A DNA stretch of 64,000 bases, taken from the IMG/VR virus record IMGVR_UViG_3300006217_000002; one strand, written 5' to 3'. The position numbers and the translations under genes were made by a program. Source of the stretch: a virus (taxonomy: Duplodnaviria; Heunggongvirae; Uroviricota; Caudoviricetes). The notes under the pieces are model-generated. The model ran no database searches, was not told the DNA's origin, and was given only the letters and a program-made list of their open reading frames with translations. Shown here one piece after another: positions 12,969-60,924 of the stretch (positions are counted from its first letter, which is position 1; every line of letters starts with the position of its first letter).

Positions 12969-13205
12969 ATGATGAATAAAAAAATTATTTTGTACTCTAC
13001 TGGATGTCCTAACTGTAAACTTCTCAAAGAATATATGGATAAGAAAGATATTATATATGAAGAGAATAACTCAGTTGATGACATGGTAGCTAAAGGTTTT
13101 GATCGCGTTCCTATGTTAGAAGTCGATGGAGAAATATATGATTTCAACGAGGCGTTAATGATCATAAAAAAATATGTAATGGAGGTAAATAAAAATGAAG
13201 ACTAG
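12969..13205 (+). CDS. Glutaredoxin/NrdH-like redoxin
   Basis: LYSTGCPNC, GFDRVPMLEVDG. Confidence 0.88.
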   Translation: MMNKKIILYSTGCPNCKLLKEYMDKKDIIYEENNSVDDMVAKGFDRVPMLEVDGEIYDFNEALMIIKKYVMEVNKNED

Positions 13206-14946: not shown

Positions 14947-15428
14947 GATATCTAACAATTCTTGATGAAGACTTCAATAATTATAAAAAACCATCGATGT
15001 TTATTGGGACGATATCGTGTGGTGGAAAATGCTGTGAAGAAGCAGGAATACCTCTCTGTGTTTGTCAAAATAATACATGGAGGAATAAGACTCCAAAATC
15101 TCAAAATAATGACGAAATTATAGGAAGATACTTTTCAAACAAATTAACATCTTCTATTGTATTTGGAGGTCTTGAGCCATTTGAACAATGGGAAGAGCTT
15201 TATGAATTCATTAAGTGTTTACGTATTAAATATAGCTGCTATGATGATGTAGTTATATATACAGGCTATAATAAAGATGAAATTGATTCTCAAGTATTAA
15301 ATCTTAAACAATTTGAGAATATAATAATCAAATTTGGAAGATATGTTCCTAATCAAGAAAAACACTTTGATGAAGTTCTAGGAGTATTCCTTGCTTCAGA
15401 CAATCAATATGGGGAGAAACTATCATGA
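14943..15428 (+). CDS. nrdG: Class III RNR activase
   Basis: Follows nrdD; CGGKCC..CVCQN, FGGLEPF, IYTGY, KFGRY, LASDNQY. Confidence 0.88.
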   Translation: MRYLTILDEDFNNYKKPSMFIGTISCGGKCCEEAGIPLCVCQNNTWRNKTPKSQNNDEIIGRYFSNKLTSSIVFGGLEPFEQWEELYEFIKCLRIKYSCYDDVVIYTGYNKDEIDSQVLNLKQFENIIIKFGRYVPNQEKHFDEVLGVFLASDNQYGEKLS

Positions 15429-44771: not shown

Positions 44772-46733
44772 ATGGGTTTCATGGAATACTCAAACAAAAA
44801 CCAGGTAAATATCATCCCTCAGCAGGAGTTCGAAGAATTGTCTAGAGAAGTATTTGGAGTTATCTCTAGTAATCTTAGGAGATCTCTTGGACCTCTTGGT
44901 TCATCTGCTACTATTTTGGATGGAACGTTAACAGAGGCAACAAAGGATGGATATCATATTCTAATGAAATATCGTTTCTTTAATCGATATAAGAAGATGA
45001 TATATAACTTAATTAAAGCTCCTTGTACTCGTATGAATAATACTGTAGGAGATGGTACTACAACTGGTATCGTATTAACTTCTGCTATGTTTGACAGATA
45101 TCAAGATGCTAAAGGAAAACTCGTATCTATGTATCGTCTACCTAGGCAGTTCACAAAAGCGTGGGATGAAGTAATTGAGGATATTTGTAGAAGGGTATCA
45201 GAAAAATCTAAGCCTGTCGATCCTACTGATTATGATACTATCTATAATATTGCATATGTAACATCGAATGGAAATAAGGAGATCAGTGAGGCTTTTGCCA
45301 AGACATATAATGAAGCTAAATCTCCAGCAATTAAGATGAAGGATTCTCCGACCAATAAATCTTATATCAAAGAGATTGATGGTTTTGAATTTCCTGCTAA
45401 TGCTATTGATGTAGTATATGTAAGAAATCAGGATCTTACAGCTGAAGAAACCGATGTAGCAATCATGATCTTTGATCATAAAATTGGAACAGACTTCTTC
45501 AATAAAGTTCTTGTTCCGATTAACGAAGTACTTCGTGCAATGGGTAAGAAGCTCATTGTAATAGCTCCATCTTATGATGAATACATGTGTGATACTGTAC
45601 TTAGGCAGTATGTGAATTTAGAATGTAACAAGTATGGAGTTATCAATTTGATTCTTACACAGTATCGTTTAGGAGATCTTACTCCTCATCAATGTGAAGA
45701 TTTAGCAGTAGTATTGAGATGTAAAACTATCAATGAACAACTTGCTGATGGATTAGTTACTAGATTTAGTGAGAAGAACAGTGATCAGATAGTAGAAGAT
45801 ATAATTGAAAACAATGAATATGATCTATACAGAGTCATTGGTTCTGCTGCTAAAGTGTTTACATCTTGTAAGAATGGATGTATCTTTAATGTAACTGATA
45901 TTGAAGAGGATAAGGAATATCAGGAAGCTGTTACCAGAGCTAAAGCTGAACTCGATGCAGTTATAAGTAAAACTGATTTCGAAAAGCAGAGTATGGCTTC
46001 TAAGGTATACGAAGCAAGATCACGATTGATGCAACTGGAAATGAAAAACTACATCTATTATGTAGGAGCTGATAGCGAGCTTCAGAAACAGATTATTTGG
46101 GATTCAATCGATGATGTTATCAAATGCCTGAGATCAGCTATCAAGTACGGTGTAGTTCCAGGATGTCAGTTATCTATTGCGACTTCATGTGAGGAAGCAA
46201 TTACTGATATCATGGAGGAGATCAAGAAATGTCAGGATATTGAAAAGGAAATTAGTTATCAATATCCTCTTAAGATTGAAATTATTGGTATTATTTATAA
46301 TGCCGTGATTGATGTATATTCAATTCTTCTTCATGGAGCTGAAGGTCTTGGTATGGTTAAACTTATCGACGGATGGAATAAAAACAGTGATGAGTATAAT
46401 AAATTAGATGAGGCAGAAGATGCTGAAAGGGACGAAGATAAGAAGAAAGAACTACACGAGAAAAAGAAGAAAGTTCAGGATGAATATATCGATAATATTA
46501 AAGAAAAAGCTAGAGTAAAGGCTGGAGAGATCATTGCTGAATCCATTAAGGAGAATAAAGTATTTGATCTTGAAAACCTTGAATACAGTGATAAGATTAT
46601 CACATCAGCAGAAACTGATATAATGGTACTCAAGGTAGCCTCTGAACTGGTTAAGATTCTTATTAGTGGAAATCAATGTATCTTCCTTGACTCAGATGTT
46701 ACAGAATCTCATCAGGAAACTATGGAAATCTAA
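44772..46733 (+). CDS. groEL: Phage GroEL-like chaperonin
   Basis: SLGPLG, ATKDG, VGDGTTT, IAYVTSNG, GVVPG, ITSAETD. Confidence 0.9.
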   Translation: MGFMEYSNKNQVNIIPQQEFEELSREVFGVISSNLRRSLGPLGSSATILDGTLTEATKDGYHILMKYRFFNRYKKMIYNLIKAPCTRMNNTVGDGTTTGIVLTSAMFDRYQDAKGKLVSMYRLPRQFTKAWDEVIEDICRRVSEKSKPVDPTDYDTIYNIAYVTSNGNKEISEAFAKTYNEAKSPAIKMKDSPTNKSYIKEIDGFEFPANAIDVVYVRNQDLTAEETDVAIMIFDHKIGTDFFNKVLVPINEVLRAMGKKLIVIAPSYDEYMCDTVLRQYVNLECNKYGVINLILTQYRLGDLTPHQCEDLAVVLRCKTINEQLADGLVTRFSEKNSDQIVEDIIENNEYDLYRVIGSAAKVFTSCKNGCIFNVTDIEEDKEYQEAVTRAKAELDAVISKTDFEKQSMASKVYEARSRLMQLEMKNYIYYVGADSELQKQIIWDSIDDVIKCLRSAIKYGVVPGCQLSIATSCEEAITDIMEEIKKCQDIEKEISYQYPLKIEIIGIIYNAVIDVYSILLHGAEGLGMVKLIDGWNKNSDEYNKLDEAEDAERDEDKKKELHEKKKKVQDEYIDNIKEKARVKAGEIIAESIKENKVFDLENLEYSDKIITSAETDIMVLKVASELVKILISGNQCIFLDSDVTESHQETMEI

Positions 46734-46751
46734 GTGTAACAATATAAACCA

Positions 46752-46789
46752 ATATAGGAATGGGAGGGTGATTCCTCCCATTCCTATAT
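46752..46789. terminator. Bidirectional terminator ending the radical SAM operon
   Basis: ATATAGGAATGGGAGG-GTGATT-CCTCCCATTCCTATAT. Confidence 0.85.
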
Positions 46790-46790
46790 G

Positions 46791-47336
46791 TTATTCAGCT
46801 TTTACATACACAGTCATACTCATATCTTCATAATTGGAAGATACTAACTTAAGATCTACTCTGATAATTTCATCACCAGGTCTGAAGAATACATTTGGTC
46901 TGGAATCCATGGTTATCTTAAGAATACAATATTCCTTGTCATAAAAAACATTTACATTTGGAATACTTACAAATCTTCCAAATACATTTTCTGTTCTGAC
47001 AAGTTCGAAGTCAATATCTTTCGGATATTCCTCATTAATAGGCATAGTTTCATTATTTAGTATTTCAGTGATGAGACATCCTATGTTAAGTTTACCTGTA
47101 GATGTGAATTTATCTCCATTAACTGTGATGATCTTATTAGGTAATGATTTAGCTCCCAATTTGTTATTAGAGTCATCTTCGATAATCATTTCTTCGTGTT
47201 TTTCATTAGATACCTCTTCTTCACCATTAAGCTTTCTCTGAACTGCTTCTACCATATCATCAGGAACGTCTTCCAGTGTTAACGCTTCCTTTTGAATTAA
47301 TCTTACGTAATAATTCAATAATGCTTTGTTTGTCAT
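46791..47336 (-). CDS. Hypothetical protein with N-terminal CD1375-like motif
   Basis: YYVRLIQKEALTLEDVPDDMVEAVQRKL, a small motif typical of genes next to Firmicute phage tail fibres. Confidence 0.55.
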   Translation of the reverse strand: MTNKALLNYYVRLIQKEALTLEDVPDDMVEAVQRKLNGEEEVSNEKHEEMIIEDDSNNKLGAKSLPNKIITVNGDKFTSTGKLNIGCLITEILNNETMPINEEYPKDIDFELVRTENVFGRFVSIPNVNVFYDKEYCILKITMDSRPNVFFRPGDEIIRVDLKLVSSNYEDMSMTVYVKAE

Positions 47337-47351: not shown

Positions 47352-48479
47352 TTACTTGCCGTTATATGTTAGATCATATTCTTGATCAATAAGTTGAGTT
47401 CCAATCCTTATTTTCTGAACCTTCTTTGTTCCATCTGGAACTTTAACTTTATTAACCTGGTGAATGAAACGTTGTTTTTCAAAATCAAATCTGGAAGAAA
47501 TCTCTTCCATATTAGCTCCTGCTCTTGATATAGCATTATGAATACCATTACCTCCAAAAGCAATGATAACATTATTTTTAGCTATTTCAAAATTCCTATC
47601 AATAATCCCAACGTTACAACTTGTATGGAATTGATGATATTCTGGAGTTCTTAAATAATATGGCTCTTCTTCAAATGCAATAACATCATCTATATTTAAA
47701 GATAATGATTCCGGTTTAGCTATTACGTACTCAGAATGATGATCTAAAAAGTCTTTTAAAAGCTTCCTGTAATAAATAGATTTCCCATAATAATTTTTGC
47801 ATTTGAAATTTACAGAAGAACATATTCCGTCAGGTTTTAAAAGTGAAGAAGCTATATCAAGATCATTTATGAATATTTTCCATCCGTGTTCATTATCATC
47901 ATTGAATAATGCTACAATATCGATATTAACAAACATTTTATGTTCATGAAACTTTTCTATAGCCTTCTTCATCATTTCTATATTACCAGGTATTCTCTGT
48001 TGTTCTTTATTTGAAATTTCATCGAATGATTGAACTCCAAAACTTACAGTTTTAATATTCAAATCATTAATGATAAAATCAATCATTTCATCACTAATGT
48101 CGAATGGATGAACTTCAAATGTCTTAAGTTTTATCTCATCATAGATAGGAATATTGTTAATGAGTTCAATTAATTTCTTTTTATTCCATAAAGTAGGTGT
48201 TCCTCCACCGAAATAAATATTATTTACTCTATCAGGAAAGGCATCTTTCATATCCTTTACTAAATTAACAACTGCTTCTTCATATAAACTTATTTGATTA
48301 ATATATTGATGTAGTGTATAGGAACCAAAAACACAAAACTTACAAATAGATCTACAAAAGGGAAAGTCCACATATATCTCGATTCGAGTATCATCATTTA
48401 TTGGATTATTTTTAAAATAATTTTTCCAATAGTTTACGAACTCTTCGTTATTATGAAGATAATAAGGATAAATCATCAA
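47352..48479 (-). CDS. HemN-like radical SAM enzyme (class C methyltransferase family)
   Basis: IYVDFPFCRSICKFC, IYFGGGTPT, TFEVHP, VSFGVQSFD, VNIDI, AFGG..AIS. Confidence 0.88.
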   Translation of the reverse strand: MMIYPYYLHNNEEFVNYWKNYFKNNPINDDTRIEIYVDFPFCRSICKFCVFGSYTLHQYINQISLYEEAVVNLVKDMKDAFPDRVNNIYFGGGTPTLWNKKKLIELINNIPIYDEIKLKTFEVHPFDISDEMIDFIINDLNIKTVSFGVQSFDEISNKEQQRIPGNIEMMKKAIEKFHEHKMFVNIDIVALFNDDNEHGWKIFINDLDIASSLLKPDGICSSVNFKCKNYYGKSIYYRKLLKDFLDHHSEYVIAKPESLSLNIDDVIAFEEEPYYLRTPEYHQFHTSCNVGIIDRNFEIAKNNVIIAFGGNGIHNAISRAGANMEEISSRFDFEKQRFIHQVNKVKVPDGTKKVQKIRIGTQLIDQEYDLTYNGK

Positions 48480-49294
48480 GAACCACCTCCTTTTATCAAT
48501 TCAGCAAGATGCTTAGGATATGAACAATATGGTTGTAATTTACAAGGTCTACATGTCTTTACTCTGTCACATGTATAACATTCTACAGGTGTAGTTCCAG
48601 GTAAATTGTGTGGACATCTATTAACTAAATTTCCATCAGGATATAATGTATATACATTATCACAATCATATTGCCAACTACAAATTCTATCTCCTATTTC
48701 AAATTTAGTATCTAGATCCCATAATTTATAAACTTCACATAACCATAGATCTGCTTTCTCAAAATATTCTTTTGTTACTTCTCCTACGTAATGCTCAAAC
48801 TTTATCTCCAATAAGCATTCATTGTCAAACAATTTAGCTATCTTGATAAACTCCTGAGGAGTAATTTCAAATAGGTCATCTGTTAACGTAATCATCACTG
48901 TATAATTTATTTTAGATTTTGATAATCTATAGCAATTAGCTAACCATTTGTCGAACATAGATTCAGATTTAAATCTATGGGGATTCCATGATGTTGATAC
49001 ATGATGTAGAGTTTTATAAAACTCAATAAGTTCAGAATCTAAAATAATCAGGTTTGTAGAAATAGATGAGATTTTAGAAACCCCATCCACTTTATTTGTT
49101 TCTACAACGTCATTCATTCGTTCACGATTTGAAGTGATCTCTCCTCCAAATAGAATAATTTCTCCATTGAAATTATTCAATTGACTTATGAACTTATCAC
49201 GATTAAATTCCTCAGGAGTATCGACGATAAAACAATGATCACAGTTAAGATTACATTTCATTGTAGGAATTGCATATAAAACTTTATCATCCAT
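48476..49294 (-). CDS. Radical SAM protein with Cys-rich C-terminus (SPASM/twitch-like)
   Basis: PTMKCNLNCDHC, FGGE, ISTNL; C..TLYPDG..CP..CYTC..CRPC..C. Confidence 0.85.
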   Translation of the reverse strand: MDDKVLYAIPTMKCNLNCDHCFIVDTPEEFNRDKFISQLNNFNGEIILFGGEITSNRERMNDVVETNKVDGVSKISSISTNLIILDSELIEFYKTLHHVSTSWNPHRFKSESMFDKWLANCYRLSKSKINYTVMITLTDDLFEITPQEFIKIAKLFDNECLLEIKFEHYVGEVTKEYFEKADLWLCEVYKLWDLDTKFEIGDRICSWQYDCDNVYTLYPDGNLVNRCPHNLPGTTPVECYTCDRVKTCRPCKLQPYCSYPKHLAELIKGGGS

Positions 49295-49310: not shown

Positions 49311-50264
49311 TCATATCCACCCATACTTTTTGAATTTATCTTTCATCTTTAACATCTCTTCGCAATGTTCAGGAGGATATTCAATTTTCTGTGATCTACA
49401 GCCATTACAAATTGGAAACAGTTCACAAAAAATACAATTAGAATTTACATGTTCTGACACATGGGGATATTTTGACTCAGGTTCTGCATTATCATTTTCA
49501 AGATCTAACAGATGTTCTTTATCGACGATATCACAGCAGTCATAGTAATGAAGAACATCATTAGCATCAACATAACATGTTCTGATCATTGCATGACATA
49601 ACATATCTTTGTTAATAGGACATTTATTCATTTCATGGAATTTACAATAGACCTCATAATCTCCTAAACCGGCTTCAATGATTTCAAAATATTTAGCAAA
49701 TAATTTGTATCTAGGATATGTTGTCTGTTGTCTTCCTTGTTTCGTTGCATTGTTTATACGTACATATGTTCCTAATCGTTTAGCAAGTTCTGCTAATTGA
49801 ATAGCTGTATCTTCATTATCTTCATCTAGAACGGCAATGAATGGAAGATCCTTTCCATTAGTATATTTTTTATACAATTCATATATTTCAATAAACTTCT
49901 CTTCAGTAAATACTGTGTTAGGATCCCATCTTCTTGTCTCTCCATAGTTGAAAGATGTTGTAATTCCTATCCAAGGTTCGTTGAATAATGGAGCCCATTT
50001 TTCTGGATGGAAATAGAAATCCTTCAAATTAGTCGTAATTGCTATATGGCAACCTGCTAACTCGTGAAGTTCATAATAGTATGAAGGATCTACCATCAAC
50101 GGTTCTCCACCACTAATGATTATTCCATTTGGTTTAATTGTTTCTATTACCTTTTTGATCTGCTCAGGTACACCATTTTTAGGATGAGATATTTCCATAT
50201 CTCCTGCTGAACAGAAGGTGCAATCAAAGTTGCACCTTCCGGTTACTCTTATAATCAATTCCAT
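49311..50264 (-). CDS. Radical SAM/SPASM maturase
   Basis: VTGRCNFDCTFC, SGGEPL, TTNL; CP..C..CC..CIFCELFPICNGC..C. Confidence 0.88.
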   Translation of the reverse strand: MELIIRVTGRCNFDCTFCSAGDMEISHPKNGVPEQIKKVIETIKPNGIIISGGEPLMVDPSYYYELHELAGCHIAITTNLKDFYFHPEKWAPLFNEPWIGITTSFNYGETRRWDPNTVFTEEKFIEIYELYKKYTNGKDLPFIAVLDEDNEDTAIQLAELAKRLGTYVRINNATKQGRQQTTYPRYKLFAKYFEIIEAGLGDYEVYCKFHEMNKCPINKDMLCHAMIRTCYVDANDVLHYYDCCDIVDKEHLLDLENDNAEPESKYPHVSEHVNSNCIFCELFPICNGCRSQKIEYPPEHCEEMLKMKDKFKKYGWI

Positions 50265-50267: not shown

Positions 50268-51512
50268 TTACTTGACCTCCGATCCATTATTACCAATTAA
50301 GCTATCGATAACTTTCTGAATATCGTCTTCCAATTTTGAATTAGCTTCTTTTTCCAAGTTACTTTGAACTTCCAAGATCTTCTTTTCATTATTTTCTAAC
50401 ATATCAGGATCTACGAGTTTATCGAAATATCTAACTTTCATATGTCCAATATCGCTGAATAACTTATAGAAAGCAATATTATATTCCTTTTCTCTTGTGC
50501 GAACAAATGCTGAATTAGGATCTTCGTCTCTATAAAGTAGAATATAAGGCTCAAACATATTTACCATATATTCAGTAGATTTACATATAATATTCCGAAG
50601 AGATTCATCTCTATCAACCATTGCATCTACAATACGATTTCTTACAGTATCTTCATTCGATAAATACACTACTGCAGGGACAGAAGGAATCTTTAGAAGT
50701 TTTGCAATGAAAAGGATAACATTATCTTTGATATCAACTGCTGATAGTACTTCACCATTCATTCTTAAGAATATTGGATCTTTGATTCCATTCTTTAAAA
50801 TATCCTCATAAAGAATATTAAATTCCTCCGAGTTCATATCACCAAATACATGATCATTTTTATCCATATCCCAGTTATATACACTTGGATGAAGTGGTTG
50901 ATATCTATAATAGTTATACGGGATATCAACACATAAAACATGAATAGGATCCTGAAGAGACGGAATCAATAATCCTGATTCATAAACCTCTGTTCCGAAT
51001 GAAGTATAATGCATACTCTTAAATTGTTTGAAGTCATGTTGTTTTAGTACGATGGCTTTATCTACTGATAAAACACTATGAAGATCTACTCTATCACGAA
51101 TAATAGATGGTCTCCTATCAATATCAAATAGGTCCTCTCCATTATAAATTGTAACCATTGCATCTTCATTATGTTCAATTACATACTTAATATAGTATGG
51201 GTGTACTATATACTTCTCATGACCGCCGACATATTCAGACACGGAAAATGCATCGCGTATATTTGATAAATTAATTGAATCATCAAGATCTATAGAATCA
51301 AGATCATCAATTTCTGCTTTGTCTGATTCATAAAATAGAACATCTTTAATTTCCATTAGATTTCTAAACTCTTCCATTGTCAATCTAATGGTCTGTCTAG
51401 TTCTTACAGCAGAAGATGCGTATTCCATATCTATAACAGGATTCATTATAAGATTACTTGTAAGATTAGGAAACTTACAAACGTTTCTAATCTGGTCTTT
51501 GATATTATCCAT
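50268..51512 (-). CDS. Hypothetical protein in the radical SAM operon, with a ParB/Srx-like segment
   Basis: LYEDILKNGIKDPIFL..AKLLKIPSVPAVV; RBS AGGAGG favours ATG 51512. Confidence 0.55.
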   Translation of the reverse strand: MDNIKDQIRNVCKFPNLTSNLIMNPVIDMEYASSAVRTRQTIRLTMEEFRNLMEIKDVLFYESDKAEIDDLDSIDLDDSINLSNIRDAFSVSEYVGGHEKYIVHPYYIKYVIEHNEDAMVTIYNGEDLFDIDRRPSIIRDRVDLHSVLSVDKAIVLKQHDFKQFKSMHYTSFGTEVYESGLLIPSLQDPIHVLCVDIPYNYYRYQPLHPSVYNWDMDKNDHVFGDMNSEEFNILYEDILKNGIKDPIFLRMNGEVLSAVDIKDNVILFIAKLLKIPSVPAVVYLSNEDTVRNRIVDAMVDRDESLRNIICKSTEYMVNMFEPYILLYRDEDPNSAFVRTREKEYNIAFYKLFSDIGHMKVRYFDKLVDPDMLENNEKKILEVQSNLEKEANSKLEDDIQKVIDSLIGNNGSEVK

Positions 51513-52239
51513 TATCATTTCCTCCTTGTAAAGAATCATTTAAATTGTTTATAAATTCTTGCTGAAGTTCGGGACTGCCGAACATTATTAACATAAAATC
51601 GATATATGGTAAATTATCCATTATTTTGCTTAAATAAAAAGCATTATCGAAATTATTAAAAATATTCTTGAAATATTTTGGTTGAGAATTTTCTTCCAAA
51701 AGAAGATTGAATGATGGAAATTGAGTAAGCTGATAAAAGTTACACATTGAAATGTTATCTTCTTCAGATACATCAAATTCACTTAGATCAAATCCTTCCT
51801 TGTCCTCTTCATGAAATGTAGATATCGCATATAGAGGTAGTGAATTTATAAACTCATGAATCACTGAGATAAACCCACTGTGATTACTATTAAACTTTTT
51901 GATTTCATTTTCATCCAAGATAGAGTATTTATTTATAGCATCAGAATTGTGTAATATTTCAATCCATGAAATTGCTAGTTCTTCGGACTTAACTTCAATT
52001 CCAGATGTCATCCATAACATCAAAAACTCATCTTTATCTTCATAAGAACATTTACTGAAATCCAATTTCATTTTAATACCGCTATTTCTGATAAAAATGA
52101 AACTAGCAAGTTTTTGTTTATCAATTGGAACAGGAAAGTCTCCAATATCAGACATATCAACAACCAACTCATCTGATTCATTAATACTGGTTATGAATCC
52201 AGGAATCAGTAAGTCTTTCATAGATATATGTTTAAGCAT
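51505..52239 (-). CDS. Hypothetical protein in the radical SAM operon
   Basis: 244-aa ORF coupled to its neighbours. Confidence 0.65.
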   Translation of the reverse strand: MLKHISMKDLLIPGFITSINESDELVVDMSDIGDFPVPIDKQKLASFIFIRNSGIKMKLDFSKCSYEDKDEFLMLWMTSGIEVKSEELAISWIEILHNSDAINKYSILDENEIKKFNSNHSGFISVIHEFINSLPLYAISTFHEEDKEGFDLSEFDVSEEDNISMCNFYQLTQFPSFNLLLEENSQPKYFKNIFNNFDNAFYLSKIMDNLPYIDFMLIMFGSPELQQEFINNLNDSLQGGNDNG

Positions 52240-52257: not shown

Positions 52258-52821
52258 TTACTTATAACAACTTGATTTAGAATGGCAATCAGAGTGGCAA
52301 TTTGAATGACAACGAGAATGACATAAGTCAACTCTTTTGACATTATTATGCTTATTCGCACTTCTCCATGATGCTAATAAATTAGCAAATAAAGTATTAA
52401 TAGAACGAATAGAAATAGTTCCATCAAGTGCAACTCCACCATTAGCAACTGCAGGAAGAGATTTAATATAGTTCGAATTAAACAAAGCTCTTCCTGATCC
52501 TGAACGTTGAACACTTATGTTTCCATTGGTATTGTAAGTTCTAGTATAAGTCCATGTTCCAACTCTGGTCAGGATTCGAGTTACCTCTACAAGATTATTA
52601 TAAATCTGAGAAGCTGAAATAGCTCCATCTTTAACTCCTACAGAAGGATTAGGTACAGATGAAAGAGCTCCTAAAATTGAAGCAGGTACCATTTCATATG
52701 AACCATCCATAGGTACATTTCCAGAATGGTTTACTCCACTAAGAATAGTGTTTTTTACCTGAGAAATAAAATCATTATTGATCGCACCTGTTGTGATAAC
52801 AGTATCTACAGTCATAGCCAT
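52258..52821 (-). CDS. Putative radical SAM substrate/virion protein with C-terminal (CHSx)4 repeat
   Basis: Ends LCHSRCHSNCHSDCHSKSSCYK; first gene of the operon; N-terminal part is S/G/N/T-rich like tail components. Confidence 0.7.
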   Translation of the reverse strand: MAMTVDTVITTGAINNDFISQVKNTILSGVNHSGNVPMDGSYEMVPASILGALSSVPNPSVGVKDGAISASQIYNNLVEVTRILTRVGTWTYTRTYNTNGNISVQRSGSGRALFNSNYIKSLPAVANGGVALDGTISIRSINTLFANLLASWRSANKHNNVKRVDLCHSRCHSNCHSDCHSKSSCYK

Positions 52822-52864: not shown

Positions 52865-52892
52865 AAGAAAACCTATTCAAATTTATAAAAGA

Positions 52893-52920
52893 GTGTATGG
52901 AGAGATATCTCTCCATACAC
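52893..52920. terminator. Perfect 28-bp palindrome separating tail-fibre genes from the radical SAM operon
   Basis: GTGTATGGAGAGAT|ATCTCTCCATACAC. Confidence 0.75.
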
Positions 52921-52939
52921 TTGTGTTTACAGTTATTTT

Positions 52940-53425
52940 TTAAGAAGCAAATACAGCTTTGAGTGCTACCCATTTATTTCCATGATAAACATACGGAATG
53001 AAATTCGTTGTATTAATCCAAAGCTCCTTATCGTTCTTAGGATTAGATGGAGATGAACTCTTGATAGATACGCGAATACCGTTAACAGTATCACTGTTAC
53101 CTCCACCTGCTTTGAATGTTTCAGGAATTTCAAGAAGATCAGGATATCTACCTGTATGAGCTACAACACTCAATCCTGTAATCATTGTATACGGGTGAGT
53201 AGGTGGATGAGGGTTGTTAAGAGCTCCATCTTCAATACCAGCAAGTTTGCTCTTCTCTGCGTTTGTATAATCATTAGTACTAAACCCAGGAACAGTACCA
53301 TTTCCAAGACGGTGGTTTGCTACTCCCCCAGATCCAAGATGATTAGCAAAATCAACTACTACCTTATCCCACTTAGTACGCTCTTCAATACTAACGTGTT
53401 GTTTGATATCAGCATTATTAGGCAT
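52940..53425 (-). CDS. Short tail-fibre-like protein
   Basis: HVSIEERTKWD, STNDYTNAEKSKLAGIEDGA, HPPTHP..ITGL, PSNPKNDKELWINT: Firmicute phage fibre motifs. Confidence 0.7.
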   Translation of the reverse strand: MPNNADIKQHVSIEERTKWDKVVVDFANHLGSGGVANHRLGNGTVPGFSTNDYTNAEKSKLAGIEDGALNNPHPPTHPYTMITGLSVVAHTGRYPDLLEIPETFKAGGGNSDTVNGIRVSIKSSSPSNPKNDKELWINTTNFIPYVYHGNKWVALKAVFAS

Positions 53426-53439: not shown

Positions 53440-56400
53440 TTATTTAAATTTCCTTATAGGCAATGTATCAGTTGAGTTAGGACATTTCTCTTTAAACTTA
53501 GCAGCTCCATCTCCAGCAATAGTAATACCTGTGCTGAATGTAGTTTTACTACGTTCGAAACATCCAAATGTTAAACCATTGATTTCCATTCCTTCTGCAG
53601 CTGCAGCTGATACTGTAATGGTAGAAATCATATTCCAAGTGTCTCTCATAAATCCTCTCATATTAGCAGTACCTGCTAAAGCGTTAGGAAGAGTAAGTGC
53701 TTTGTTAAATGAGATACATCTGAACAAGAAATGATCCAAACATCTTGCTCCTGTAACGCCAGCAGGGATAGTAAGAGCCTGATTGAACGTACTGCAATAT
53801 TCTAAGAATCTCATCAAACATTGCTCGCCAGTTAAACTAGCAGGGATAGTAAGAGCCTGATTGAACTTAGTACAGCCAGAAAGAAATCTCTTCATAGCTC
53901 CTTTACCTGTAACGCCAGCAGGGATAGTAACTGCACTATTGAATGCTGTACAATTCTTCAAAAATCCATGTAAACATTCTTCTCCTGTAACGCCAGCAGG
54001 GATAGTAAGAGCCTGATTGAACTTAGTACATCCTTCCAGGAATTCCATTAAGCAGCGATCTCCTGTAACATTTGGAATTCTATTAACTTTAACAAGGTTA
54101 ATGAAGTTACATCCAAAACTACGTAAAGATGTAGGAACTGTCAATCCCGTATCAGCTTTCCAGAATTCAACTTCAGTAATATCGCTCTTCTTAAATACTT
54201 TTCCAGCAATATTAATATTTGAATTTGCTACCCTATGATTACATAATCTACTTAACTGAGACATCCATTTGATTATAACTGTTTCCCCACTAGCAAGTTT
54301 CACTTTAGCTAAAGGATCATCATCAGTAGCTTTAGTTTTATTAGGATCTTCTGCAATAGTTATTTCAAAATCCTGATAATATGATTCTGCCTGGAATACA
54401 ATTTTTTCAGGATCATTTTCTTTTGCATCTTTATACCATTCATAAGCTTCATGTTTACCCTGAGGAACTTCAGCTCTGATTTTAATCTTCTTTCCAACAT
54501 CTTCATTACCAATGGTAAGTGTTCCATCATTTGTAATACTTGTGCCAGTAGTTCCCCCGCTGTCAATCAACGACCATCTTACATCAGTATAGCTAGGAAC
54601 TTCTTCATCATACGTATTACTTTGCCTGTTTCCGATAACTTTATTTGTGTGACATTTAGGATCCAATACATATGAATTATCAGTTCCATTGACATAAACG
54701 GTTTCAGGAATATTAACTATGTTAGCAACTTCCATATATTCAGGAAGAAATGTTACATAGTAGCTATGTTCCCATGTAGAATTTGTTTCAGGTGTAACTT
54801 TTTCAATTCCATTAGGAACAGCAAATACGAATTTTGTAACTCCATCCTCGTAATTATAAAGGTAATAACAATCCATATTCCAGTCATAATCAGGATTGAA
54901 TTCAATGTTGTAATTCGTCTCCCAGTAATTCTGACTTTCAGTTCTAGGTCTAAAGGCTGTACATAATCCTCCTTTAAACTCAGGATCATTCGGTCTAATA
55001 GGAGAAACTTCAATTGACTGACCTGTTGCATTGAAAGGATCCGTTCCAAAACATAACATTGGTATTGGTCTCTTTGCTCTTATAATGGAGGGAAGATTCA
55101 TTCTAATACCTTCTACAGCAACGAATATATCAGGCGAAGCAGGAGGTACAATCGTAATACTAGCTGTTGCTACAAAATTAACTCCTCTTCGAACACCGTC
55201 TACAACTGTCATCTCAACCACTATAGGATCATTTATATTTTTAAGCCATTGATCAAAATAATCAGGAGGTGTAGGAGAAGGATTTCTGTTCCACCATGTT
55301 ACATTTTCATAGTCGATAACTAGCTGATTCTGTAAATTAAGACTGACTCTTGCAGCTGCTGGAGCGCTCTTAATTTTATATATGATATTTTTCATCGTAG
55401 CGTTAGATGGATACACGGTACCTGTTAAGTTCAAAGGCTCGTCAACAGGATCAAAGTTTTCAGGCATATTAGTAATGCTTTCAACAGATATCCACTCACT
55501 TCCTACGTTGATTGTGAATGTTCTTTCGTAGTTTACAGTTTCAGAGATACCTTTAACAATGGTAGCTTTAATTTTCAATGTACCAGCTCCTGTTGTAGAA
55601 AGTAAATCTCCATTCAATCTTGCTCCAGTAGTTCCAGCATCAGCAATACTATAACTAACATTTCTATATGTTGCATTTTCTGGTGTAACATTAGCTGTTA
55701 GTAATATAACCTCTTTAGCAATAATTGTACTATCGATTTGTAGAGTTACTCCTTCTACCGGAACAAACTTTGTTTTCACATCAATCCAAAAATCTCTTGT
55801 ATAATCCTGACTAGGACTTATACCTTTTCTTACAGTAGCTCTGATTAAACATGTACCAGCTACTCGAGCTCTTAAGTAACCATTATTGATATATGCTCCT
55901 GTACCTCTGGCATCAAGAATTGACCATTCGATTGTTTTAACAGAAGCATCACTTGGTTCAACGATTCCATTTAATAGAATATTGGTATCTGTATCAATAG
56001 TAGTTGAGATCCCTGAAACATTTGTAACTGATACATATCTCGGTACCACTACAGTACATGAAGCTGATAATTTTCCGTCAATAGTTGTAGCTGTAAATGT
56101 AACTGATCCTTCATTAATTACTGAAATAACTCCAGTATCTTTGTTAATACTAGCTACATATGAGTTAGAGCTATTCCATACTACTTTAGGTAAGTCAGCT
56201 GCTGCGGCATCTTTACCAATCTCAAGTTTATAAGTTGAATCTATATAAAGCTTTTCAGGAGCATTACTAATAAAGATAGATCCTAACTCTGCCGATACAT
56301 AGACATCACAGATATCTGAGAATACGTCTCGAGCTCCAGCTGCTGATACTTTACAATAGTAATAGAAATGACCAATTCTATTATATGGAACATTAAACGA

Positions 56401-57540
56401 AGATGATGTTTCTCCAGTTAATTCAGTACCATTCTCTGTAGACTTGGTAGAATTTCTATACCATTGATATTGCATGATTTTTGTAGTCGTTGAAGTTGCA
56501 TTTACAGCTAAAATATCTCCAGCTTTGTTCAGTGTAAGATTGATATTGGGAACTGGCTGACTGATAATTTGGATTTCATTTTCAACAGCTCTCACATTGA
56601 AATTTTTGAAATAACTTTTATCTGGACCAAGAGCCTTAGGAATAGTACATTTTAAAACAACAACTCCTGTTGATGTAGCTATAAGCTTATTATTTTCAAT
56701 TACAGCGTTACCAGATACTACTTCCCACACAGTACTCTGAACTGTTGCGTTGTATGGAAGAACTGTCATTTCTTCAAGAACGAATGGAACGTTTGTTACA
56801 ATATTATCAGGTAAACCGATTATATCAGTAACCGGAATAAATGCAGCTTCACCACTTTGAGGTTCAACATTAAGTACAGCTTTATCACTTCTATATACCA
56901 GTACTCCAGGAGAATTAGAAGGATATGCTGTATCCATTGTAAACCTGATAACAGCATTGTCTCTATTTGTGAACATTACTGTTGCATTACGCAATGTGAT
57001 GATAGATCCATCCCCCATTCTAACTCCCCAGTGGTTAGGATCATTACTGATAGTAAATACAACATCTGTAGACTGATTGGGAAATGGTATTGTAGCCTGT
57101 AGAGTTTTTGTATATCCATACTCTAAATTAGCTCCAGTGTTATCATCTATTGTAAATGCAAAGTATCCGCAAATGCTATTCATTTCAAACGGCCTTACAT
57201 CACTTCTTGCAGTAATTCCCCATGATGCAGTATCACTTCGATACATAAGAAAACATGGAGAGTTTGCAGGATATTTTTTATCCATAGTAAATAAGACTAT
57301 GGAATTATCTTTGTTAACAAATAATATTTCAGGGTCACGAATGGGGATGATAGATCCATCCCCCATTTGTGCAGCCCAATCTTCATGGCCTCTGCTGATA
57401 GTCAAATTGACATCACTAGCCTGAAGAGGATATGTTAATGCAAAAATACATTTGTTTGTATCACCATTACTATCACTGAGATTTCCGGTAGTGTCAATAG
57501 TAAACCCGTAAAATCCAGTTTTAGTATTTTTTATACCCAT
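53440..57540 (-). CDS. Large adhesin/receptor-binding protein: two N-terminal shared domains, multiple Ig-like (Big_2) domains, C-terminal BspA/DUF285-like LRR
   Basis: Repeated V.P.NAT.K.I.WS motifs; YQWY..YYYC Ig; 26-aa FNQALTIPAGVTG..CL..FL..C repeats. Confidence 0.8.
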   Translation of the reverse strand: MGIKNTKTGFYGFTIDTTGNLSDSNGDTNKCIFALTYPLQASDVNLTISRGHEDWAAQMGDGSIIPIRDPEILFVNKDNSIVLFTMDKKYPANSPCFLMYRSDTASWGITARSDVRPFEMNSICGYFAFTIDDNTGANLEYGYTKTLQATIPFPNQSTDVVFTISNDPNHWGVRMGDGSIITLRNATVMFTNRDNAVIRFTMDTAYPSNSPGVLVYRSDKAVLNVEPQSGEAAFIPVTDIIGLPDNIVTNVPFVLEEMTVLPYNATVQSTVWEVVSGNAVIENNKLIATSTGVVVLKCTIPKALGPDKSYFKNFNVRAVENEIQIISQPVPNINLTLNKAGDILAVNATSTTTKIMQYQWYRNSTKSTENGTELTGETSSSFNVPYNRIGHFYYYCKVSAAGARDVFSDICDVYVSAELGSIFISNAPEKLYIDSTYKLEIGKDAAAADLPKVVWNSSNSYVASINKDTGVISVINEGSVTFTATTIDGKLSASCTVVVPRYVSVTNVSGISTTIDTDTNILLNGIVEPSDASVKTIEWSILDARGTGAYINNGYLRARVAGTCLIRATVRKGISPSQDYTRDFWIDVKTKFVPVEGVTLQIDSTIIAKEVILLTANVTPENATYRNVSYSIADAGTTGARLNGDLLSTTGAGTLKIKATIVKGISETVNYERTFTINVGSEWISVESITNMPENFDPVDEPLNLTGTVYPSNATMKNIIYKIKSAPAAARVSLNLQNQLVIDYENVTWWNRNPSPTPPDYFDQWLKNINDPIVVEMTVVDGVRRGVNFVATASITIVPPASPDIFVAVEGIRMNLPSIIRAKRPIPMLCFGTDPFNATGQSIEVSPIRPNDPEFKGGLCTAFRPRTESQNYWETNYNIEFNPDYDWNMDCYYLYNYEDGVTKFVFAVPNGIEKVTPETNSTWEHSYYVTFLPEYMEVANIVNIPETVYVNGTDNSYVLDPKCHTNKVIGNRQSNTYDEEVPSYTDVRWSLIDSGGTTGTSITNDGTLTIGNEDVGKKIKIRAEVPQGKHEAYEWYKDAKENDPEKIVFQAESYYQDFEITIAEDPNKTKATDDDPLAKVKLASGETVIIKWMSQLSRLCNHRVANSNINIAGKVFKKSDITEVEFWKADTGLTVPTSLRSFGCNFINLVKVNRIPNVTGDRCLMEFLEGCTKFNQALTIPAGVTGEECLHGFLKNCTAFNSAVTIPAGVTGKGAMKRFLSGCTKFNQALTIPASLTGEQCLMRFLEYCSTFNQALTIPAGVTGARCLDHFLFRCISFNKALTLPNALAGTANMRGFMRDTWNMISTITVSAAAAEGMEINGLTFGCFERSKTTFSTGITIAGDGAAKFKEKCPNSTDTLPIRKFK
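53632..54021 (-). repeat. Five tandem 78-bp (26-aa) LRR-coding repeats
   Basis: Units start at 54021, 53943, 53865, 53787 and 53709; 41-bp exact identity between 53748-53788 and 53982-54022. Confidence 0.9.
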
Positions 57541-57558: not shown

Positions 57559-60500
57559 TTAATCTGTCTTCAATTCAATCCATGCTCTACTAGATCTATA
57601 TACTAACTGACATGGAGAGTTTGCAGGATATGGAGTATCAAGCTTGAACTGTACAACTGCATTAGATTCGGTGCGTTCAATTACTTCAGGTTCATTGATT
57701 TTAATCATAGTACCATCACCCATCTTGACAGCAAATACATTCTTCTCTTTAGATACATTGATAGCGAAGTTCATGTCTTTCATCGGAGGATAAGGAATTG
57801 CAACCCATACATATTCAACCTGACCATGTTCATCAGCTCCATTAACAGAAACTGTGAATGCACTATATCCGGCCATACGGTTGATGATTGTCTCTTCATC
57901 AGGATCATCCGGATCAATTTCAGGTTTACCAGGACCAAATGAGATATCAGATTGACCAGTTCCTGGAACAGGATTAATTAATTGCCATCTTTCACCATCA
58001 AATACAAACATGTGTTCATGGTTCTTACCAATCATACCATCTGTAAGCGTTTTACCTCCAAAACGAACTTCTGCATCACCTGTTTCATTTACATTGAGAT
58101 ACGTTGGATTATCTCTGCCTCCGCTCTTATCTTCATTCTTAAACATAATAGATACTGTTGAACCTATTTGTCTCATAAATACAACAGGATTCATATAAGT
58201 AGATCTCAAAGTTGCAACTTTATGAGATTCATTTCCATTTGAATAACAATCACCCTTTATTACACCTATAGCATTTCTTCTAATCCACTCTGTATTAGCT
58301 ATACAATGATCATTAGAATCATCAGGAGGTGTAGGAGTTTTAGGTTCTCCAGTAAATTCATACTGATTATGAGCTTCATCAGGCCAATGCATAGGAGCAC
58401 GTGTAGTATCGGTAGGATGTCGGTGATCTCCTCTAGCATAATATCCGTCATCAGTACCTACAAACGGAATACCATCCATCAATGGATCAACATTTGTTGA
58501 ACGAGTATGTCCAAACAAATCAACAGTGGCTCTTCCAAAAGTACTTCCAGATGGAGAAGTATGAACCTTTGGAGCTTTTGTAAGATTCAGATAACGACCC
58601 ATATTCGCCGATAACGCAGCTATTTCATTACTTGATTCAAGGTGATCTATTACATCTATTCCTGACATATCATGGATTATCTGTAATACATCTTCTACGT
58701 CTGCTTTCTTTTGATTTAAGATACGACCCATATTAGCAGACAGCGGTCTATCTGTTTCATAGGAGATGAGATTATCAATTACAATAGATTTGACAAACTC
58801 TGTAGTTGCAATACGAACTGATCTATCTCCAACAGGTTGAGTTGTAGTTGTAGGAGATTCTCTTAAGTTAACAGATGCAATGATGTCATCTCCTGTAATT
58901 GTGTCAGGTATAATTGTAGCCTTAATATTTCCATCAGTATCTACATCTACTTTGATATTCTTACTATTTACACCTAAGTATTTAGTAACTAATCTCTTGA
59001 TGTTAATTCTATGCTCATCTGCATTAGGAAGTACGAGGACTAGTTCACTATTTACATCATCAAAGTAAAGAGATTTAAATATAGGAATAATAGGAATTTC
59101 CAAATCGAATTCTGTACCATCACGATAGTTGAAAGTAATTGTACAAGTACTATCTTCCCAACTTACATTAGCTACAAAATTATTATTACCAACATCTTCC
59201 TGAAGCAGATTCAGTTGTCTCTTAATTCGGTCTATAGCTTCTTGTGTAGCATCTGATATAGGTTTATCTTTATCAGATGTATTATCTACATTAGGTATTC
59301 CTAATTGTTCTAATGTTACATTATGAGGATTATTAAAATTAGAAATATGCTCCAAAAATAAAGAGTTAGAAACTGCACCAATCTGTTCAGGTGTAACTCT
59401 ATGAGGATTGTTGTAATCATTTAAGTGATCATTCAGTCTATTTCTTACAACTGCAATATCACCAAGATCTACAATAATCTGCTGAATTCTATCTTTAAGA
59501 AGATCGATTTGTTCTGTTGCAGCACGTTGAGTAATGAAACCATCAGAGTTAGTTCCAGTCTCATCATACCATTTAGGTCTTCCATTAATAGAATCCCAGT
59601 TGACAATTCCATCCGGTAATCCTCCACCAGCTAGAATATAATCTCCTAATACATCAGTTAGCGATTTCCATACTGTATCAAAATCATCATCACTAACTTT
59701 AACTAAGATATCATTAGCTGTACCACCATCAGGAACGCCTTCACCATCAGCTCCATCAAAGTAATCAACTCCTTTAATAGGAGAATAACCTTGAGGTCCT
59801 CTGATAGTCATAGGATCAGGAGCTGTAACTTCAGTAGATCTAGTCCACGTTAAAATTCCATCTGAAGAGATTATAGGTCTCCACATTAAAATGCTTTCAC
59901 CTGCATCTCCTCCTTCATCATCTGCTGCACTTCCATCAAACAGATTAATGAATCTTCCCTGCATCCATACATACATCTGAGTATCATAGTACCTGATTAC
60001 AAGATCACCAGGTTTCATTTCCTGTACTCCAACTTCTTGCCATACAAGACCAGGTTTCTTTACATAAATAATACAATCCTGAGTTTCATCAGTCGAGTAG
60101 TCGGTCGCTGGTTTTAATGCAAAATAAGTTAAAGTAGGATCTGTAACTTCAGGAAGCTCATCACCATGAGCCAATACATAGTTTGGATTCCAGTTAACAG
60201 ATTCATATTCAACTAATACAGCTGTATTAGTTCTATCATCATATTCAATGTTTTTATAATTGAAGAAAGAGTCTCTGATTTCTTTGATCATTTCATCAAT
60301 TTCTTTCCTACTATATGTTCCAACTTGATGGGCTGTTACATTATGAGGATTATTGATATCTAAAATGTGTTCATTTAAATCAGATTGATCTGCTTTCTTA
60401 TTCCAACTCTCCCTTTCATCCATAGTAATATGAACAAACTGATCTGTTATATGATGATTAAAATCTTGGGCTGGAGCCATACTATTCCATTTATCCCGTT

Positions 60501-60924
60501 CTTCTTCAGTGATGTGAATATCCTTATCACGCACATGTGCTTCAAAAGTTGCAGCAGAAACTTTTGTATCCATCATTTCTCCTACAGCTCTTTCCGAAGG
60601 AACTTTCGAATGAGACCTAGCATTAGGCTCTCTATTAATAGTTTTAATGATTTCAGTCTCACCTACAACGCCATCTATTCCACTCCATGTCATTAATTTA
60701 CCAGCACCGCCTCCAGAAAGAATTGGCTGCTTTTCTGCAATAAGTCTATATATGGCATTAATTTCTTCAGTGAGAGTAGTGGAATCATCATCGAAAGTTT
60801 TACGAATTGCATCATATACCGTTTTAGGATATGTATAGTCATAATCATAAACGGGAATTGGTTCTTGCTTTCCATCCAGATAAATTCTGGACTGAACAAT
60901 TCTTCTTTCTTTCAATCGTCCCAT
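57559..60924 (-). CDS. Long tail fibre protein
   Basis: Repeated H..D.NNPH.VT..Q.G and HITEEER.KWN fibre motifs, NVDNTSDKDKPIS, ALSANMG, YARGDHRHPTDTTRA. Confidence 0.85.
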   Translation of the reverse strand: MGRLKERRIVQSRIYLDGKQEPIPVYDYDYTYPKTVYDAIRKTFDDDSTTLTEEINAIYRLIAEKQPILSGGGAGKLMTWSGIDGVVGETEIIKTINREPNARSHSKVPSERAVGEMMDTKVSAATFEAHVRDKDIHITEEERDKWNSMAPAQDFNHHITDQFVHITMDERESWNKKADQSDLNEHILDINNPHNVTAHQVGTYSRKEIDEMIKEIRDSFFNYKNIEYDDRTNTAVLVEYESVNWNPNYVLAHGDELPEVTDPTLTYFALKPATDYSTDETQDCIIYVKKPGLVWQEVGVQEMKPGDLVIRYYDTQMYVWMQGRFINLFDGSAADDEGGDAGESILMWRPIISSDGILTWTRSTEVTAPDPMTIRGPQGYSPIKGVDYFDGADGEGVPDGGTANDILVKVSDDDFDTVWKSLTDVLGDYILAGGGLPDGIVNWDSINGRPKWYDETGTNSDGFITQRAATEQIDLLKDRIQQIIVDLGDIAVVRNRLNDHLNDYNNPHRVTPEQIGAVSNSLFLEHISNFNNPHNVTLEQLGIPNVDNTSDKDKPISDATQEAIDRIKRQLNLLQEDVGNNNFVANVSWEDSTCTITFNYRDGTEFDLEIPIIPIFKSLYFDDVNSELVLVLPNADEHRINIKRLVTKYLGVNSKNIKVDVDTDGNIKATIIPDTITGDDIIASVNLRESPTTTTQPVGDRSVRIATTEFVKSIVIDNLISYETDRPLSANMGRILNQKKADVEDVLQIIHDMSGIDVIDHLESSNEIAALSANMGRYLNLTKAPKVHTSPSGSTFGRATVDLFGHTRSTNVDPLMDGIPFVGTDDGYYARGDHRHPTDTTRAPMHWPDEAHNQYEFTGEPKTPTPPDDSNDHCIANTEWIRRNAIGVIKGDCYSNGNESHKVATLRSTYMNPVVFMRQIGSTVSIMFKNEDKSGGRDNPTYLNVNETGDAEVRFGGKTLTDGMIGKNHEHMFVFDGERWQLINPVPGTGQSDISFGPGKPEIDPDDPDEETIINRMAGYSAFTVSVNGADEHGQVEYVWVAIPYPPMKDMNFAINVSKEKNVFAVKMGDGTMIKINEPEVIERTESNAVVQFKLDTPYPANSPCQLVYRSSRAWIELKTD

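Follow-up and report, generated by a model that had tools for sequence, protein, structure and literature searches.

Cys-His repeat tails in a phage protein family linked to radical SAM genes: a candidate for enzymatic maturation of a virion protein

The Cys-His tail of gene A and its relatives

The subject of this analysis is a protein bearing a tail of Cys-His repeats, encoded by a tailed phage (Caudoviricetes) in a block with several radical S-adenosylmethionine (SAM) enzymes. The window, i.e. the whole stretch of DNA that was analysed, comprises 64,000 nucleotides of the IMG/VR virus record IMGVR_UViG_3300006217_000002. Translation of its minus strand at 52258-52821 yields an open reading frame (ORF) of 187 amino acids, P0001, here called gene A, with a folded alpha/beta body of about 165 residues that precedes the tail. 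The C-terminus reads LCHSRCHSNCHSDCHSKSSCYK*. Its last 21 codons plus the stop (52258-52323, minus strand) encode a core of four C-H-S-x units followed by S-S-C-Y-K (C-HSR-C-HSN-C-HSD-C-HSK-SSCYK-stop), a feature defined by the translation, by two family alignments (A1 and A2) and by the structural model. The four His-Ser-[R/N/D/K] triplets spaced by Cys that a first-pass annotation had read from the letters of the window are thus confirmed by translation of the full ORF.

The same annotation held that the repeat is kept at the level of the protein and is not the product of recent slippage, and the codons bear this out. In order, those for Cys are tgt, tgt, tgc, tgc and tgt, those for His are cat, cat, cac and cat, and those for the Ser after each His are tct, tca, tct and tct, while Tandem Repeats Finder reports a weak 12-nucleotide period (73% matches, score 42); since synonymous codons vary and the period is weak, the repeat is maintained at the protein level. 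A chance origin of the motif is negligible: shuffling predicts 0.08 runs of at least two CHxx units per window over six frames, and the window contains one such run, the tail.

Searching by words brought up 12 relatives that share the tail, at 28-98% identity, and a profile search of 1.84 billion representatives extended the family to 437 clusters at E ≤0.001, 194 of them at ≤1e-10 (clusters of representatives at 50% identity). Alignment of homologous tails, which had been proposed as a check, finds the Cys-His motif kept in relatives of 46-71% identity, and it recurs throughout the 437 clusters. Aligning 49 members gives a mean column identity of 25%, and no column is invariant except P37, C167, H168, C171, H172 and C175; the Cys and His columns among these are invariant in both A1 and A2. 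Cys is followed by His in 729 of 759 units, the 30 exceptions being mainly Tyr (16) and Asn (9). The further conserved position is that two residues beyond the His (His+2), whereas the residue directly after the His varies (S/A/G/N/T). Wording the repeat as His-Ser triplets therefore holds in the window, while across the family, where that Ser is variable, the unit is better written C-H-x-[S/N/D]. The window tail itself has R, N, D and K at His+2, of which R and K are atypical of the family. Similarly, the observation that every Cys lies in the tail is true of P0001 (all 5, at residues 167, 171, 175, 179 and 185) and does not hold for the family, since Cys occurs elsewhere in 92 of 237 distinct relatives. 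The pattern of conservation points to strong constraint on the tail at the protein level.

Tails fall into classes. In the majority class, proteins of approximately 180-215 amino acids carry three C-H-x-S units and then R-x-R-R at the end, mostly SRGRR; Ser occupies His+2 in 80% of units and Asn in 15%, so that, as judged from its sequence, this tail is literally His-Xaa-Ser spaced by Cys. Outside the majority class, Asn, Asp or Ser is found at His+2 in 85%. A minority class, which includes the window, has at least four units and either ends in CYK or continues into longer Cys/His-rich stretches. A third class, ending in CHSNCHGSCHGS[IL] and lacking the RxRR end, was seen at loci L022, L045, L062, L064, L069, L084 and L085, and A genes of this class (end GS[IL]) sit after a protein of about 2100 amino acids. 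At L046, L047 and L049 (about 8800-10300), tandem A paralogues of 255 and 247 amino acids lie ahead of a single copy of the partner gene, B, described below.

Such a tail might be no more than a metal-binding rod or tip, holding Zn or Fe, perhaps between chains, with no covalent modification and with the neighbouring enzymes acting elsewhere. Cys and His are classic ligands and are here the invariant residues, the number of units, which ranges across relatives from 3 to 19, would suit a rod of adjustable length, and the tip of the T4 fibre protein gp37 is known to hold iron through His-x-His repeats. Other features of the tail sit poorly with this reading: a pure Cys/His site would not need His+2 to be limited to S/N/D, and Tyr, the main replacement of His (16 of the 30 exceptions), is a weaker ligand but an aromatic residue.

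The gene A family is almost confined to phage contigs. IMG/VR contains 96 relatives, whereas a set of 185,579 species, each represented by one genome, yields 5, all on contigs of metagenome-assembled genomes (MAGs) and 4 of them from Bdellovibrio-like bins. Among the phages that carry the gene are cultured jumbo phages that infect Ralstonia, Burkholderia, Pseudomonas, Agrobacterium and Sinorhizobium; relatives available in culture include Atu_ph07, RSF1/RSL2, FLC6 and pPa_SNUABM_DT01. ORF071 of phage RSF1 has the C-terminus ...CHSSCHSSCHGSRGRR and gp170 of phage Atu_ph07 the C-terminus ...CHSSCHASCHNSRSRR, and each adjoins a radical SAM gene as detected by motif scan. These two relatives were found only by a motif scan of loci reached through the enzyme; tblastn searches of phage records with P0001 and with a canonical member, P0061, gave no match, nor did megablast of the 6.8-kb operon against phage records. 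By BLASTP, P0001 aligns with Atu_ph07 gp170 across its last 66 residues at E 3e-7, as a distant homologue. A 467-amino-acid ORF at locus L090, on a Pseudomonadales MAG, was considered and rejected: it has four CH units and no radical SAM neighbour, and looks unrelated.

Linkage of the tail to radical SAM enzymes

Gene A was compared across 91 loci, including 2 contigs with close relatives, 80 from IMG/VR, 5 from bacterial genome bins and 2 from cultured jumbo phages. The IMG/VR and bin loci were collected via the tail pattern and the jumbo phages via the enzyme, and the profiles used were iterated on our own ORF calls. Gene B occurs in 89 of the 91 loci and in most of them follows A immediately; radical SAM genes, too, occur in 89, averaging about 3.3 per locus. 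The genes usually run in the order tail fibre, cupin/JmjC-like protein, radical SAM, A, B, a protein of 345-390 amino acids with no assigned role (x345) and further radical SAM genes, the last of which alternate with 2-oxoglutarate (2OG)-Fe(II) oxygenases and phrog_20737. This order is fixed in most loci, where A and B also lie among the enzyme genes, in reading frames that overlap.

BLAST clustering divides the radical SAM genes into four main orthogroups, c0-c3, and a small one, c4. The c1 enzyme occurs in 66 loci and accompanies every tail class wherever the flank suffices; c4 occurs in 7 loci and a HemN-like enzyme in 5, both in window-type cassettes. Tails ending in RxRR go with c0+c1+c2+c3 together with the cupin and the 2OG oxygenases, CYK tails (4 loci including the window) with c1+c4+HemN-like, and tails ending in GS[IL] with c0+c1 only. 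No window-type locus has the cupin, the 2OG oxygenases, the 345-amino-acid protein or phrog_20737. Tail, B and radical SAM genes are thus tightly linked, and the class of tail co-varies with the enzyme set.

Some loci depart from these arrangements. At L078 (L078:9293-17881), which has a low GC content, A and B are followed by six radical SAM genes (c1, c4, c3, c0, a singleton and c2) and no oxygenase, in what looks like an all-radical-SAM version with every orthogroup. In L086-L088, on Bdellovibrio-like MAG contigs, A and B are separated by an additional radical SAM gene, and upstream of the cassette no fibre gene is obvious. The RSF1 cassette is interrupted (L004, 6864-7980) by a pair of dihydrofolate reductase genes and an HNH endonuclease gene, which lie between radical SAM genes.

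The cassette of the window is a minus-strand block with a strong hairpin at either end; it opens with gene A and runs A, B, D, P0014, P0015, P0016, E. The c1 enzyme is P0014 (317 amino acids; 49311-50264, minus strand), which has the CxxxCxxC motif at residues 11-18 (C11, C15 and C18) and matches PF04055 at 53 bits, above the threshold of 29.5. P0015 (272 amino acids; 48476-49294, minus strand), a short SPASM-like enzyme of orthogroup c4, was recognised by the motif at residues 14-21 (C14, C18 and C21) and by phrog_1802, its PF04055 score of 21.4 bits being below threshold. P0016 (375 amino acids; 47352-48479, minus strand) is HemN-like, of the class C type, and matches PF04055 above threshold at 68.9 bits. 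Eight Cys (215, 223, 243, 277, 280, 286, 289 and 301) are invariant in the last approximately 100 residues of the c1 alignment (A4), and eight in the C-terminal part (186-257) of the c4 alignment (A5). Both orthogroups have the SPASM-type arrangement, and cluster binding is predicted for each.

In an NCBIfam scan of 29 c1 orthologues, 21 matched TIGR04085. The best named match was to DynA (27 of 29, best E 6.2e-18), followed by the anaerobic sulfatase-maturating enzyme anSME (TIGR03942; 23 of 29, best E 1e-15, below cut-off), DarE (22 of 29), AmcB (18 of 29) and XyeB (10 of 29, best E 1.1e-7). P0014 on its own matches HxsC at 27.6 bits, PapB at 18.8, YhhB at 15.9 and DynA at 15.3, with WgkB-type models also weak. 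Searches of the PDB with P0014 and P0015 as single sequences returned nothing, whereas the c1 profile gave a full-length match to anSME (4K36; E 3.5e-9, positions 2-320), the closest solved structure; its matches to other solved radical SAM enzymes are mostly through the N-terminal motif alone. P0016 matches HutW, HemN and HemW at 62-70 bits (E 1e-17 to 1e-19) over residues 11-212 only, where the cut-offs are 205-400; it has the motif YFGGGTPT, and its C-terminal 160 residues are without a match. No cassette enzyme reaches the NCBIfam cut-off of any named maturase family. By these profile comparisons c1 falls within the protein- and peptide-modifying SPASM world, outside every named family. 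PADLOC gave pVip matches that are only generic, arising from the radical SAM N-terminus, and that candidate was dropped.

Radical SAM and oxygenase genes could also serve the synthesis of a small molecule or a modified nucleobase, with A merely a structural bystander. Phages do use radical SAM enzymes in DNA hypermodification (PMC8989533), and the dihydrofolate reductase genes of RSF1 lie inside the block. Nevertheless, the DNA-modifying enzyme that has been described is spore-photoproduct-lyase-like and not of SPASM type (PMC8989533), c1 resembles maturases of proteins and peptides, and the embedding of A and B among the enzyme genes, with frames overlapping in most loci, would be odd for a bystander. 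Since, in addition, the window operon shows no kinase, glycosyl or phosphoryl transferase or hypermodification-type pyridoxal-phosphate enzyme, we consider this explanation very improbable.

The remaining genes of the operon carry little annotation. Gene B (P0017, 244 amino acids; 51505-52239, minus strand), the partner protein, belongs to phrog_20767. Its AlphaFold2 model has a predicted local distance difference test (pLDDT) score of 89.5 and finds no match in the PDB (Foldseek best E 0.37; VIA-align wide best Z 3.4), and Atlas gave nothing usable. Predictions of a complex of A and B scored 0.00, 0.78 and 0.00 in separate runs and count neither way on binding. Gene D (P0018, 423 amino acids; 50268-51539, minus strand) is an ORF found in window-type cassettes only, with homologues in 6 loci; it has no Pfam, NCBIfam or PHROG match, and an Atlas feature score of 0.90 to ParB_N clusters, with few shared features, is a weak lead only. 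The possibility that D is the canonical x345 protein that follows B was rejected, as hhalign shows no relationship. Gene E (181 amino acids; 46791-47336, minus strand), the last gene of the operon, has homologues in 6 window-type loci and reaches the cut-off of no family in Pfam, NCBIfam or PHROG. The two hairpins were located by a scan for terminator-like structures: one of 13 pairs (52892-52921, minus strand) lies between the fibre genes and gene A, and one of 16 pairs with a T-rich tail (46752-46789, minus strand) follows gene E and marks the end of the operon. Just past that end, on the opposite strand (44772-46733, plus), is a GroEL-like chaperonin of 653 amino acids (phrog_5725, E 2e-61).

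Upstream of gene A the minus strand encodes fibre-related proteins. Gene U (161 amino acids; 52940-53425), with fibre-like repeats and weak PHROG tail-fibre matches, is a conserved upstream neighbour seen in 7 window-type loci. Beyond it lie a Big_2 adhesin of 1366 amino acids (53440-57540; PF02368) and a tail fibre of 1121 amino acids (57559-60924; PF22337, Phage_fiber_rpt), with matches to PHROG tail-fibre families as well. Large fibre-like genes precede the cassette in many other loci too. Elsewhere, the window also encodes virion proteins and, on the plus strand at 13195-15428, an NrdD-like anaerobic ribonucleotide reductase (583 amino acids) followed at the activase position by a 4Fe-4S protein of 161 amino acids (PF13353). 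The anaerobic reductase marks this as a large phage of an anaerobe, in which, from its gene content, it evidently replicates.

The body of gene A and the presence of a homologue in virions

The AlphaFold2 model of gene A, computed from a 13-row alignment, is compact, with three long helices packed on a sheet (pLDDT 85.8), whereas the last 15 residues (173-187) are unstructured, with pLDDT below 50. As modelled, the body is not a fibre by shape. The fold has no clear match in the PDB (Foldseek best E 0.5; VIA-align wide best Z 3.8), and its matches in BFVD are to uncharacterised phage proteins only, including a 296-amino-acid protein of Atu_ph07, the length of gp170.

Direct evidence on location comes from that phage. 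Table S5 of Attai et al. (PMC6102473) lists among the proteins of purified Atu_ph07 virions the hypothetical protein gp170, of 31.89 kDa, with 8 unique peptides and 35% coverage, present across gel bands 1-9 with its maximum in band 1. The RefSeq entry FDI40_gp170 (L005:3983-4873) is the A homologue of 296 amino acids, and its computed mass of 31,894 Da agrees with the published value, which identifies the two with each other. Trypsin would release the tail of gp170 in a 30-residue peptide that ends in CHNSR. The products of the neighbouring genes, i.e. the radical SAM proteins gp165, gp168 and gp171 and the B protein gp169, are not in the virion list (PMC6102473, Table S5). The position of gp170 on the gel is odd for its size, the 31.9-kDa protein peaking in the top band beside proteins mostly of 75-140 kDa; covalent oligomers would fit, although we take this as a hint only.

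Some relatives of A carry adhesin-type modules, namely LRR_5, He_PIG or DUF285, and in these the Cys-His repeats form an internal linker, not a C-terminal peptide. Examples are P0039, P0043, P0034, P0046 and P0097, in which the additions are BspA-type leucine-rich repeats (LRR) inside the body, He_PIG Ig-like or DUF285 domains after the repeats, or a Gly-rich domain in front. P0039 (435 amino acids) gives the same Pfam result as the A protein of equal length at L008 (L008:1928-3235), which belongs to a window-type cassette. The most economical reading is that gene A encodes a structural component of the particle, in its fibre or baseplate region. The alternative offered by the first-pass annotation, a metal-binding tip of a trimeric fibre, is upheld in so far as a relative is found in virions and some relatives have adhesin domains, but not as to shape, the predicted body being compact and alpha/beta. 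For a metal-binding tail without modification, both the detection of a relative as a virion protein and the stalk-like position of the repeats, between body and further binding domain in some relatives, would count in favour.

The same findings bear on two other explanations. Were A a classical precursor of a ribosomally synthesised and post-translationally modified peptide (RiPP), its first 165 residues would be a leader and its core would be modified, cut off and released as a bioactive peptide. A long N-terminal part with a short Cys-rich C-terminal core beside SPASM enzymes does resemble RiPP clusters, and the weak matches of the enzyme to PapB-, YhhB-, DynA- and WgkB-type models are in keeping with this. 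What makes such a precursor very unlikely in our view is that the body is a well-folded conserved domain, that a homologue is found in virions at 35% coverage, that further domains follow the repeats in some relatives, that the gene sits in a fibre module and that no protease or transporter is seen among the named genes of the operon (B, D and E being without assigned function).

Alternatively, the tail could be a carrier, scaffold or chaperone that supplies iron-sulfur clusters or iron to the neighbouring enzymes without being their substrate. In favour are the high Cys content of the tail and the need of those enzymes for several 4Fe-4S clusters each. A carrier would be unexpected in purified virions that lack the enzymes, as would LRR or Ig-like modules on it, and strict conservation of His and His+2 would be atypical of cluster scaffolds; of all the explanations weighed here this is the one that we find hardest to credit.

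Proposed maturation of the tail and its possible chemistry

Our preferred reading, to which we attach a probability of roughly 60%, is that the tail of a virion protein undergoes enzymatic maturation. Gene A would encode a particle component made of a compact alpha/beta body specific to phages and, behind it, a flexible tail built from C-H-x-[S/N/D] units. Within the infected cell, as the particle is assembled or earlier, the dedicated radical SAM enzymes encoded alongside would modify this tail covalently. We infer both that the tail is the substrate of these enzymes and each of the chemical steps. The c1 SPASM enzyme would act on the invariant Cys-His core through hydrogen-atom abstraction, while c4 and the HemN-like enzyme may add steps specific to the variant, e.g. 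a second crosslink or a methylation, and B, together with D in the window, would be non-catalytic helpers or enzymes of another type.

Three chemistries are candidates, given here in our order of preference. The first would join the His ring to the Cβ of the residue two positions on, as in triceptides and dynobactin; where His is replaced it is mainly by Tyr, which agrees with the aromatic-X-X rule of the triceptide synthases. The second would be a Cys thioether, within or between chains, and the third the oxidation of Cys or Ser to formylglycine, as by anSME; the invariant Cys suggests one or other of these. The earlier proposal that two enzymes install His cyclophanes and Cys thioethers on the same core is a possible outcome and one of several options. 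More generally, a radical SAM-modified tail gains from the presence in the operon of two SPASM enzymes and one HemN-like enzyme and from the linkage in 89 of 91 loci, whereas no cut-off of a named maturase family is reached.

The nearest described system is the HXS antiphage system, in which the radical SAM enzymes HxsB and HxsC and the small protein HxsD mature the His-Xaa-Ser repeat protein HxsA, the mass change being mapped to one S-H-R-S-S unit (PMC13128918, Li et al., Nat Commun 2026). The phage cassette appears to share its idea and nearly its motif. HxsA, too, is a folded protein and not a short peptide; it carries tandem His-Xaa-Ser units and is matured by two radical SAM enzymes with a small helper. 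The tail of the main phage class, with its three C-H-x-S units, may be read as His-Xaa-Ser units spaced by Cys. There are also differences. HxsA is a bacterial periplasmic, peptidoglycan-binding defence effector whereas phage A lies in a virus structural module, and HxsA has plain HxS units near its N-terminus (modified peptide 48-78) with no Cys mentioned (PMC13128918). At His+2 the window has R/N/D/K and not Ser, and the main phage class, with 80% Ser, has a Cys before each unit. Of the HXS models (TIGR03976-03979), HxsC was matched by 27.6 bits against a cut-off of 267.9, over the N-terminal 55 residues only, and HxsA, HxsB and HxsD were not matched.

For a His crosslink the closest models are the triceptide synthases HaaB, HtkB and YhhB, which join His C2 to the Cβ of residue 3 and whose precursors often have several motifs (PMC11499958). 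The first-pass annotation had seen the triceptide form in the triplets, correctly: H-S-R, H-S-N, H-S-D and H-S-K in the window, and H-x-[S/N/D] across the family, fit aromatic-X-X, and Tyr is the commonest substitute for His in the phage tail. Unlike the phage protein, however, the substrates are short secreted bacterial peptides, and the Ω1-X2-X3 motif as described has no Cys (PMC11499958). The triceptide models XyeB (TIGR04496), YhhB (NF041707) and AmcB (NF041718) were not matched at their cut-offs, P0014 scoring 15.9 bits against 445 for YhhB. DynA and DarE are the best named NCBIfam matches among c1 orthologues, although far below cut-off (450 bits for DynA), and their substrates are antibiotics of 7 to 10 residues, not a virion protein. 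DynA links the His ring nitrogen to the Cβ of the residue two places on.

For chemistry at Cys, anSME (PDB 4K36-4K39) offers a minimal SPASM enzyme whose target is a Cys or Ser in a folded protein and which does without oxygen the work of an oxygen-dependent counterpart. It differs in that the sulfatase motif C/S-x-P/A-x-R is absent from the tail and TIGR03942 is matched below cut-off. The maturation of freyrasin by PapB and of SCIFF by CteB resembles the phage case in its regularly spaced Cys in a C-terminal core and in its use of SPASM enzymes, there forming thioethers, and the PapB model (NF047865) aligns over residues 3-289 of P0014, nearly the whole enzyme. Its score of 18.8 bits nevertheless compares with a cut-off of 340, and the invariant His has no counterpart there. 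The acceptor spacing of PapB, C-x3-D, does not fit the four-residue period of Cys in the tail; NxxC and C-x3-D, both thioether motifs of the ranthipeptide literature, were rejected as descriptions of the tail on account of that period.

Several points weigh against maturation of the tail by the linked enzymes. The regular Cys-His pairs also resemble a metal site. The enzymes score far below every curated cut-off, and hence their chemistry cannot be inferred by homology. The loci were chosen via the tail motif and many are close relatives, so that the counts of co-occurrence do not represent independent events. The protein detected in virions is gp170 of Atu_ph07, a distant homologue, and not the protein of the window; moreover, the sample buffer listed for those virions includes no reductant, so that disulfides could explain gp170 in the top band, and many proteins smear in the gel.

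A bare metal site, the main rival, leaves unexplained why protein-modifying SPASM enzymes should be present in 89 of 91 loci and why the enzyme set should change with the type of tail, and on balance we regard it as unlikely. Modification might itself create or adjust a metal site; such a mixed form would overlap with enzymatic maturation, and metal binding and modification may well coexist.

On enzymatic maturation, the make-up of the cassette may reflect the supply of oxygen. The window has an oxygen-independent version, and the other version, which contains a cupin and several 2OG-Fe(II) oxygenases besides radical SAM enzymes, is probably that of phages infecting aerobes. The lack of oxygenases and the presence of the short SPASM and HemN-like enzymes fit a host without oxygen, and by implication the radical SAM enzymes would functionally replace the oxygenases. 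In its fullest form the proposal is that phages covalently staple or rebuild the Cys-His tail of a particle protein by RiPP-type radical SAM chemistry, with an oxygen-free version (c1+c4+HemN-like) in phages of anaerobes; the links would be of the His-Cβ type and/or Cys thioethers, possibly between chains, and radical SAM enzymes would stand in for the cupin and 2OG oxygenases. We advance this tentatively, as somewhat less than an even bet.

The literature mentions genes of the cassette only as annotations in papers on jumbo-phage genomes, and no study of the Cys-His-tailed protein was found there. Known targets of radical SAM/SPASM maturation are secreted peptides (RiPPs) and sulfatases, joined in 2026 by the bacterial defence effector HxsA; should the present reading be true, a structural protein of the virus particle would be added to the substrates of that chemistry. 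The nearness of the motif to His-Xaa-Ser raises the question of whether the phage cassette and bacterial HXS defence share their chemistry. What the window itself contributes is an enzyme set free of oxygenases and a CYK-type tail of four units with R/N/D/K at His+2. With the oxygenase-free variant taken into account, the essential core shrinks to A, B and a single SPASM enzyme (c1), and the two kinds of cassette provide a natural comparison for the steps that oxygenases perform. The family is large (437 clusters) and, since it reaches cultured jumbo phages, these ideas can be tested at the bench. Gene A, if they hold, would be the first virion protein enzymatically crosslinked in this way, and its cassettes would form a natural pair of aerobic and anaerobic maturation routes.

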